Shown piece after piece: positions 1,380 through 1,865 of a DNA stretch of 5,800 nucleotides. The stretch lies in IMG/VR virus record IMGVR_UViG_3300028485_000154, positions 1-5,800 of that record; one strand, given 5' to 3'. Origin of the DNA: a virus. Lineage: Duplodnaviria > Heunggongvirae > Uroviricota > Caudoviricetes. The notes below the pieces were generated by a model. It had not been told where the DNA came from, did not search any database, and worked only from the letters and a program-made list of their open reading frames with translations. Made by a program: the position numbers and the translations under genes. Position 1 is the first letter of the stretch, and every line of letters starts with the position of its first letter.

Positions 1380-1487
1380 TGAATCACCTTTACCAGTCAT
1401 GTATGAAGACAACACATGCAATCAGTTGACAATGATTCTCATTTCCATTAAAAAATACCGCGACATTCTTATTCATGAGGAGCTATA

Positions 1488-1556
1488 CCCGCCAGCAACC
1501 AAAGTAGCGAAAGCTGTTCATCCCCCCAATATTTTTGCTGGCGGGTTCTTTTTTCT
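1488..1556 (+). terminator. Long 11-bp inverted repeat with T-rich tail on the plus strand (terminator-like or structured RNA element)
   Basis: CCCGCCAGCAA (1488-1498) pairs with TTGCTGGCGGG (1535-1545), followed by TTCTTTTTTCT (1546-1556). The 36-nt loop contains a small AGC-GAAA-GCT tetraloop hairpin. The large loop makes terminator function uncertain. Confidence 0.3.
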
Positions 1557-1697
1557 ACTATCCTCCTCCCCGAGGGGGCATTTCAGTCTTTTTCTCATTA
1601 ATCGTTACCTGAAAGGCGGAAGAAAAAGTCCGTTCTTTGGCCCTAAATTACTTCATAATTTATGTCCATGCAAAATCTGATTTCCAACTCACATAAT

Positions 1698-1737
1698 AAC
1701 CTGATGATACACTTGCAAAACCTGATAACATCAGGTT
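1698..1737. repeat. Three copies of the octamer AACCTGAT (two direct, one inverted) forming a possible operator-like site and hairpin
   Basis: AACCTGAT at 1698-1705 and 1719-1726; inverted copy ATCAGGTT at 1730-1737. The second and third copies form a perfect 8-bp stem with a 3-nt loop. Confidence 0.35.
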
Positions 1738-1779
1738 ACTATGCGCCTGTGAAAAAATCTTCACGTTTTATTCCTTGCC

Positions 1780-1808
1780 GCCCGCGTTTCCCAACGCGGG
1801 CTTTTTTT
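1780..1808 (+). terminator. Rho-independent terminator oriented for plus-strand (antisense to late operon) transcription
   Basis: GC-rich stem GCCCGCGTT / AACGCGGGC (1780-1788 and 1793-1801) with loop TCCC, followed by TTTTTTT (1802-1808). On the minus strand the hairpin is not followed by a U-run, so it is directional. Confidence 0.6.
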
Positions 1809-1865
1809 CGAATCCCCCCTATTTGTGGAGGCATGGACAGCTAGGACAGAATACCTGGGTATTCA

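Follow-up and report, generated by a model that had tools for sequence, protein, structure and literature searches.

In this study, we ask what is encoded in the non-coding spacer between a toxin gene and a holin gene in a 5,800-nt stretch of viral DNA (positions 1 to 5,800 of IMG/VR virus record IMGVR_UViG_3300028485_000154), which was analysed at its full length and is referred to as the window. The window covers the late-region junction of a lambdoid E. coli prophage, in which every gene lies on the minus strand, and its holin is one which we take to resemble holin S21 of phage 21. An earlier note on this DNA had pointed out a promoter and terminators on the plus strand of the spacer, directed against the late operon, and had considered either an antisense RNA of about 90 nt or an insulation of the toxin genes. 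The orientation against the late operon is borne out, and the signals probably mark small-RNA (sRNA) genes. We consider it likely that the spacer holds two trans-acting sRNA genes of the Hfq type, both opposed to the late operon, together with an intrinsic terminator facing in the direction of late transcription (late-sense). This reading is carried by homology, position, orientation, conservation and predicted folds, from which we infer transcription and Hfq binding, as well as the targets and what the late-sense terminator does. The argument makes use of the following features of the spacer:

1346–1380, minus strand: late-sense intrinsic terminator (stem 1380–1354 followed by T6), strong, called by the terminator scan
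1426–1454, plus strand: P1, promoter-like, TTGACA-N17-TAAAAA, with a consensus -35 and a -10 lacking the final T
1461–1556, plus strand: predicted sRNA-1 (s1), about 96 nt, from predicted fold and conservation
1713–1742, plus strand: P2, promoter-like, TTGCAA-N18-TACTAT, aligned by its -35 with the putative -35 of AsxR
1749–1808, plus strand: predicted sRNA-2, about 60 nt, a short RNA resembling PapR, from PapR profile match and fold
1773–1779, plus strand: seed CCUUGCC (CCTTGCC in DNA), intact
1780–1808, plus strand: sRNA-2 terminator, GCCCGCGTT-TCCC-AACGCGGGC-T7, top site of the terminator scan
1809–1865, no strand: border with the toxin cassette; cargo-free relatives are homologous up to about 1807–1808

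The best-founded part of this reading is the relationship of the right-hand element to PapR, an Hfq-dependent sRNA of uropathogenic E. coli UTI89 that is activated by LRP and whose start was mapped by primer extension (Khandige et al. 2015, PMC4546395). The identity of PapR is fixed, since the published cloning and knock-out primers give its ends (5' end CGGGCTGAAGTCCGGAAGTT, 3' end CTTCACGTTTTATTGTTTATTCCTTGCCGCCCGCGTCTCCCAGCGCGGGCTTTTTTT; PMC4546395, Table S3). A profile built from 32 unique PapR sequences, with the window left out, matches window 1713–1808 on the plus strand at E 4.5e-16 and 50.8 bits over model positions 76–180 of 183 (nhmmer), and at the level of sequence we regard PapR-family homology of 1713–1808 as hardly open to doubt. 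The homologous part corresponds to the 3' 105 nt of PapR with a 7-nt deletion in an AU-rich stretch; the 5' 75 nt and the mapped start CGGGCUGAAGUCC are absent, so that a full-length RNA of about 180 nt is not what the window encodes. Absent as well is the region upstream of the native start in which the published LRP site lies (PMC4546395). Upon BLAST search of the phage collection, only window 1733–1808 was matched (79.8% identity, E 9e-10), mostly by Stx2a-converting phages (Stx, Shiga toxin). The PapR-type element of these phages lies 3' of the putative stx2B open reading frame (ORF) and antisense to it; in one of them it is found on the opposite strand immediately 3' of two ORFs whose lengths, 319 and 89 aa, equal those of Stx2 A and B.

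The same family contains, by sequence, the candidate sRNA 'E2348C_1409.E2348C_1408.IGR' (182 nt) of enteropathogenic E. coli (EPEC), a match that the E2348/69 locus confirms. This candidate was obtained from RNA interaction by ligation and sequencing (RIL-seq), has the homologues EcOnc08/21/42 in enterohaemorrhagic E. coli (EHEC) Sakai (Tree et al. 2014), and formed chimeras with cfa, dppA and tir, the target motif being GGCAAGG (Pearl Mizrahi et al. 2021, PMC8550237). EcOnc42 was described to 'bookend' stx1 on its 3' side (PMC7547250), and in Stx phages the PapR-family sRNA sits 3' of stx1 and stx2, antisense to the late operon. The copy in the window shares with these RNAs the seed CCUUGCC, the stretch complementary to papI and the terminator, as well as its site 3' of a toxin or moron (cargo) gene, between the moron and the lysis cassette and antisense to the late operon. 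It differs from PapR in its predicted length of about 60 nt (or about 105 nt) instead of about 180 nt, in lacking the upstream region that bears the LRP site, and from the family in flanking an ArtAB/pertussis-like toxin cassette rather than stx.

The strong plus-strand terminator reported earlier at 1780–1808 could be recovered as 1780–1801 plus T7, the top-ranked terminator-like site in the window. Its proposed use as an insulator is to be revised, since it constitutes the 3' end of a PapR-family sRNA gene, whose promoter-like site at 1713–1742 had been overlooked. Both 1780–1808 (plus strand) and 1380–1346 (minus strand) display the GC-rich stem, the loop of 3–8 nt and the U-tract of Rho-independent terminators. 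RNA folding, proposed as a check in the earlier note, gave z = -5.11 for 1749–1808 and z = -2.97 for 1461–1556 relative to shuffles. Among 17 family members, 88.9% of the cells of the sRNA-2 hairpin are paired, with U-G, U-A and C-G at the top of the stem.

Homology between the window and the PapR loci begins exactly at TTGCAA (1713–1718), and TACTAT (1737–1742) follows 18 nt on. From this P2, an RNA of about 60 nt that starts at about 1749 is predicted. In the PapR loci, the motif aligned to P2 reads TTGCGC-N18-TATTAT, and in Sp5, TTGCGC sits where the -35 of AsxR is expected, this -35 having been inferred from the mapped 5' end. AsxR is a primary transcript of 51–60 nt, the 5' end of which was mapped by tobacco acid pyrophosphatase (TAP)-dependent rapid amplification of cDNA ends (PMC4104026). 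At the AsxR locus of Sp5, the 5' part of PapR is common up to the -35 and divergent thereafter, whereas the window is common from the -35 onward. The -35 of P2 thus forms a module boundary, which argues for a working promoter. As an alternative, transcription might start at about 1704 from ATGCAA (1668)-N18-CATAAT (1692–1697), yielding an RNA of about 105 nt, or reach sRNA-2 by read-through from P1.

Repeats are found around P2. A direct repeat TGCAAAA(T/C)CTGAT is found at 1669 and 1714, a 29-nt inverted repeat (76% complementary) at 1681–1709 and 1726–1754, and the P2 spacer contains a perfect 8-bp palindrome (AACCTGAT/ATCAGGTT), which in one sequence lineage (B) differs by a single C-G pair replaced by T-A and by plus-strand changes that G-U pairing would tolerate.

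In slot, strand, size (51–60 nt) and position 3' of and antisense to toxin genes, sRNA-2 resembles the anti-sRNAs AsxR, AgvB and EcOnc03, and through the PapR loci the putative -35 of AsxR (TTGCGC) aligns with that of P2. It is unlike AsxR and AgvB (RF02703, RF02702) in that their conserved 3' domain of about 42 nt, AGUAUCUCAUGCnnUUGCCCGAACCCAyUCGGGC, is absent from the window, and an Rfam cmscan of the whole window (E <= 1) returned no AgvB, AsxR, STnc100 or Esr41. Convergent Hfq-bound sRNAs between a moron coding sequence and the downstream ORF have been described by Tree et al. 2014.

Regarding targets, the complementarity of about 22 nt to papI, which spans the stretch ahead of the terminator together with the stem's 5' arm, is retained in the window copy. 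In duplex prediction with a papI sequence taken from another strain (L009), the window variant reached -35.0 kcal/mol and the UTI89 type -37.1, compared to about -21 to -22 (standard deviation 3.5) for shuffles. We propose that sRNA-2 would be transcribed from P2 in the lysogen, be bound by Hfq through its U-tail and pair in trans with host and virulence mRNAs through CCUUGCC-GCCCGCG, which overlaps the 5' arm of the terminator. That sRNA-2 is expressed and functional in this prophage appears rather probable to us. A holin-directed antitoxin of the type I-like kind was also considered and rejected, since the duplex energies of s1 and sRNA-2 with the translation-initiation region of the holin equal the shuffle means, with 52% of shuffles at least as good.

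The second element, s1, lies closer to the holin. The -35 TTGACA (1426–1431), the 17-nt spacer and TAAAAA (1449–1454) described in the earlier note are all in place, including the weakness of a -10 without its final T, and the motif TTGACA-N17-TAAAAA occurs once in the window with one mismatch allowed, where 0.07 occurrences are expected. The inverted repeat with T-rich tail is likewise present, its stem being 12 bp and not 11 bp long (1487–1498/1535–1546, 100% complementary); it encloses a 36-nt loop with a small GAAA-capped stem inside, and the tail TTCTTTTTTCT, U-rich as RNA (UUCUUUUUUCU), ends at 1556. Stem and U-tract in 1487–1556 are those of a terminator; the 36-nt loop exceeds the maximum of 8 nt in our scan, which consequently did not call it. 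The plus-strand RNA of about 90 nt suggested before remains a prediction that conservation supports, and whether s1 is a real sRNA we regard as an even question.

This conservation extends far beyond the window. The s1 element (window 1415–1565) is present in 1426 of 5426 complete E. coli genomes (26%), and with the spacer 1388–1865 as query, 569 plasmids of PLSDB were matched over the first 325 bases, s1 included; most of these plasmids are from Escherichia, some from Klebsiella, Salmonella and Shigella. Among species-representative genomes, s1 was found in Escherichia and Shigella only. Five sequence lineages can be distinguished, in all of which the -35 and the 17-nt spacing are constant. 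The -10 reads TAAAAA in four of them and TAAAAG in one, and four lineages have intact stem arms, the fifth showing a single mismatch, while identity in the neighbouring segment 1561–1640 drops to 55–68%. Lineage C is devoid of any sRNA-2, so that s1 and sRNA-2 can be considered independent units. No paper was retrieved when the literature was searched for s1 sequence strings.

In terms of position, 89 holin-bearing loci were compared, which had been selected by motifs and therefore inform on orientation and position, not on frequency. Every s1, PapR and PasA/C match in them is antisense to the holin and at fixed distance: s1 about 180 nt upstream, PapR about 440 nt upstream if s1 is present, or 2.1–2.8 kb if a large ORF lies in between. 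All 135 PapR matches near holins are antisense. Many further copies of s1 belong to phage remnants, located beside iss on ColV-type plasmids or near pap in extraintestinal pathogenic E. coli (ExPEC) chromosomes, where the holin is lost and the element is kept. In one such ExPEC chromosomal locus, about 2 kb from papI (L009 4001–4319), and in one on a ColV-type plasmid next to iss and iro (L010 4001–4319), the late-sense terminator and s1 are kept beside an Rz fragment, holin and endolysin having been deleted. The idea that PapR of UTI89 is a relative of the pap-adjacent s1 remnant was dismissed, as PapR matches sRNA-2 and not s1.

Could the spacer code for small proteins instead? The candidates are a listed plus-strand ORF of 93 aa (1399–1680) and a minus-strand 'hypothetical protein' of 63 aa, which RefSeq annotates in strain MS20654 at the equivalent of about 1338–1529. 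Indels of 1 and 2 nt between lineages break both frames, the window itself does not contain the minus-strand ORF, and the mini-ORFs differ in length by lineage (8, 16, 8 and >25 codons), which renders this explanation extremely improbable; a conserved ORF on either strand of s1 is ruled out by the frame-breaking indels.

The closest known counterparts of s1 are PasA and PasC of EPEC (EcOnc51/52 in EHEC), which also lie directly upstream of a class II holin, antisense to it and with a late-sense terminator in between. They share with s1 a TTGACA -35 with 17-nt spacing and a poor -10, and GCCAGC-based terminator stems with long loops (14–17 nt in PasA/PasC, 36 nt in s1). Their promoter, TTGACA-N17-TCAGAA, is read from the annotated 5' ends taken as starts (PMC8550237 Table S6). 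Northern blots confirmed PasA (85 nt) and PasC (79 nt), although their -10 is no better than that of P1 (PMC8550237), and a later preprint suggests that the 5' end of PasA may arise by processing. At the sequence level, homology of s1 to PasA/PasC is borderline. A distant-mode blastn of E. coli genomes returned the s1 family alone, and the s1 profile gave no match to PasA/PasC and matched a unit in Sakai Sp5 at E 0.016. In reverse, a profile of PasA, PasC, a second unit of prophage PP2 and the Sp5 unit had its best match at window 1425–1552 with a borderline E of 0.011.

The s1-like unit in Sp5 (L004 8083–8208) is antisense to late genes and features TTGACA-N17-TAAAAA (GTTGACAAT...TTTTCATTAAAAA), a CCGCCAGCG hairpin and a T-run; its position has no entry in Table S2 or the Hfq peaks of Tree et al. 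2014. On the late-sense strand of Sp5, a 14-codon mini-ORF (MKTVLIVNNNGKKL) is encoded by the P1-like motif, its stop codon overlapping the ECs_1210 ATG. In K-12 DLP12, the sequence upstream of essD is not homologous to the spacer, and a generic stem-pattern scan of viral contigs gave mostly unrelated matches, the only additional units being of the Sp5 type. We propose that s1 could be a second, unnamed sRNA, occupying the holin-proximal slot that PasA/PasC hold in EPEC.

Several observations weigh against two functional sRNA genes. Transcription of s1 and of sRNA-2 in this prophage is a prediction from sequence, and both promoters lie below the threshold of the promoter scan, P1 with its incomplete -10 and P2 with 8 of 12 positions fitting the consensus. 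The 36-nt loop of s1 is unusual for a terminator, and its stems never vary and hence provide no covariation signal. Part of the conservation of the P1 motif may, upon analysis of the Sp5 mini-ORF, reflect ancestral coding sequence. For sRNA-2, the pair variation among the 17 members is compatible with the hairpin and does not exceed shuffle controls, and the start and 5' part of PapR are missing. In addition, an 86-bp segment (1724–1809), comprising most of sRNA-2, is precisely deleted in PMV-1 and five other listed prophages that are otherwise 99.6% identical; the deleted strains among the listed near-identical toxin prophages include one named ST95-32. Since it is deleted in such close relatives, sRNA-2 is dispensable.

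These points could be taken to indicate inert relics of recombination, with sRNA-2 being a promoterless, 5'-truncated PapR pseudogene and s1 a decayed fragment of PasA/Sp5 type, carried along with the holin or with iss. The truncation of PapR, the 86-bp deletion, the many s1 copies in degraded remnants and the poor consensus matches of both promoters would all be accommodated. However, homology to PapR starts exactly at a -35 element and not at a random point, the seed and the stretch that pairs with papI are intact, as is the terminator, and the hexamers, spacing and stems of s1 are unchanged across lineages that differ by 15–45% in 1561–1640. We therefore judge this explanation unlikely.

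The third component of the spacer, the late-sense terminator, had been missed; it lies within a region then taken as holin coding sequence. To place it, the neighbouring genes are needed, whose annotation derives from a RefSeq locus that is 99.8% identical across the queried 601 bases (window 1300–1900):

1100–1315, minus strand: class II holin, 71 aa, 216 nt, beginning MYQMEK, as annotated in the RefSeq locus
1866–2597, minus strand: 'scabin-related ADP-ribosyltransferase' of the RefSeq relative, artA in the earlier note
2633–3052, minus strand: AB5 binding subunit, after the RefSeq relative
3354–3740, minus strand: ORF of antiterminator Q, of which RefSeq annotates 372 nt

The order of the late operon in RefSeq is RusA, KilA-N protein, DUF968 protein, antiterminator Q, AB5 binding subunit, ADP-ribosyltransferase, class II holin and YdfR family protein. 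The gap had been assumed to start at 1388, after a holin start at GTG 1387; as the true holin ATG is at 1315, this does not hold and the non-coding gap extends from 1316 to 1865. The longer holin ORF from GTG 1387 would cross a strong terminator hairpin. This hairpin consists of the stem AGGCCATCAG/CTGATGGCCT around a loop of 7 nt, followed by TTTTTTCTTT as its tail; it is situated 39 nt upstream of the holin ATG and folds with -18.5 kcal/mol (z = -2.95 compared to shuffles). It is identical at 33 of 33 positions among intact prophage lineages, and non-homologous terminators are found at the equivalent place in Sp5 and in EPEC prophages PP2, PP5 and PP6. We suggest that it would halt toxin or moron transcripts ahead of the holin unless RNA polymerase has been modified by Q.

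On the same strand, Rfam reports a sub-threshold SgrS match at window 1349–1568 (27.7 bits, gathering score 37, E 1.1e-4), which ends in the late-sense terminator and is driven largely by it. The 17 nt directly upstream of the hairpin (UGGUAAAGGUGAUUCAG) are invariant across all s1 lineages. These two observations could point to a 3'-end-derived late-sense sRNA, or be due to chance.

The terminator scan found no other late-sense terminator from Q to 1380, including 3053–3353 between Q and the toxin genes. Toxin transcripts should consequently cross both sRNA genes. This bears on the explanation of the earlier note, in which the plus-strand RNAs and terminators act in cis by pairing or colliding with late or toxin transcripts, and also keep antisense transcription that comes from P1 or bor/iss-type genes further along out of the toxin genes. 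Indeed, any late-sense transcript reaching from the toxin genes to the 1380–1354 terminator would be complementary to both RNAs over their whole length, and in relatives iss lies on the same strand as s1. Moreover, the relatives and the PapR loci carry a convergent late-sense terminator (ACCCCTCCGGAGAGGGGT) after the sRNA-2 terminator, which is absent from the window, leaving both sRNA genes open to read-through. However, the family members with data work in trans via Hfq, on papI, cfa, dppA and tir (PMC4546395, PMC8550237), and s1 is kept on ColV plasmids and in ExPEC remnants that have neither holin nor toxin and hence no target in cis. An antisense or insulating role is therefore plausible but secondary; it is compatible with two trans-acting sRNAs and does not exclude them, and as the explanation of the spacer we regard it as improbable.

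With which part of the prophage is the spacer associated? The earlier note had proposed to look for its conservation in related toxin prophages. In the viral contigs, the only other ArtA relative (76% identity) belongs to an unrelated prophage with a different lysis cassette, which carries neither PapR nor s1. The expected conservation with the toxin is thus absent from the single related toxin prophage tested, yet both elements are kept with the S21-type holin backbone behind other cargo: relatives retain window 1300–1807 at 87–94% identity behind a DUF4236 gene in one case and a DNA methyltransferase in another, and their homology ends right after the sRNA-2 terminator. In this test the partner had been misjudged, the actual one being the holin backbone, and by sequence the sRNA island travels with this backbone and not with the toxin. 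That the toxin cassette is inserted cargo fits its GC content of 35–43%, compared to about 55% in the early genes.

We propose a model in which the spacer would constitute a small-RNA island, carried by lambdoid (Stx-type) prophages between the moron site and the lysis cassette, with two independent genes opposite the late operon that would each have a promoter-like site and a Rho-independent terminator. Moron-site prophage sRNAs as such are known, and they rewire host and virulence regulation, as AsxR does for haem use, AgvB for GcvB and PapR for P fimbriae; new are the short PapR member described here and the widespread, uncharacterised s1. With an ArtAB/pertussis-like cassette sitting in front of a PapR-type gene, the layout of a toxin bookended by an sRNA is extended from Shiga toxins to another AB5 toxin, and the findings support a view of sRNA genes as part of a lysis-cassette backbone that receives varied cargo. 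The unnamed s1, carried by about 26% of complete E. coli genomes as well as by ColV plasmids, is a candidate for sRNA discovery, and for sRNA-2 a natural deletion control exists in the PMV-1 lineage. A more far-reaching version, which we put forward tentatively and consider doubtful, is that s1 represents a genuine, unnamed Hfq-type sRNA family kept beside iss on ColV plasmids after loss of the holin, and that s1 and the short PapR form a convergent antisense pair with a long 3' untranslated region of the toxin mRNA, coupling toxin expression to that of the holin or uncoupling the two.

Concerning the remainder of the locus, the scan for tRNAs found none in the window. Between segment 3053–3353 and the sequences downstream of Q in K-12 quuD or strain MFDS1019527 there is no conservation, and the alignment of relatives over the region downstream of Q, aimed at pR'/tR', was uninformative. 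In the unrelated prophage with the ArtA relative (L174 2932–7158), an ArtB/ArtA-like pair lies upstream of the holin-endolysin cassette and a second toxin-like pair downstream of the lysis genes, the latter consisting of a 259-aa A subunit resembling heat-labile enterotoxin and a 133-aa ORF, so that the lysis genes are flanked by two AB5-type cassettes. In strain R1, the IS66-family element ISEc8 interrupts the endolysin gene of the prophage (L001 2399–5382), with the toxin genes and the sRNA island intact.
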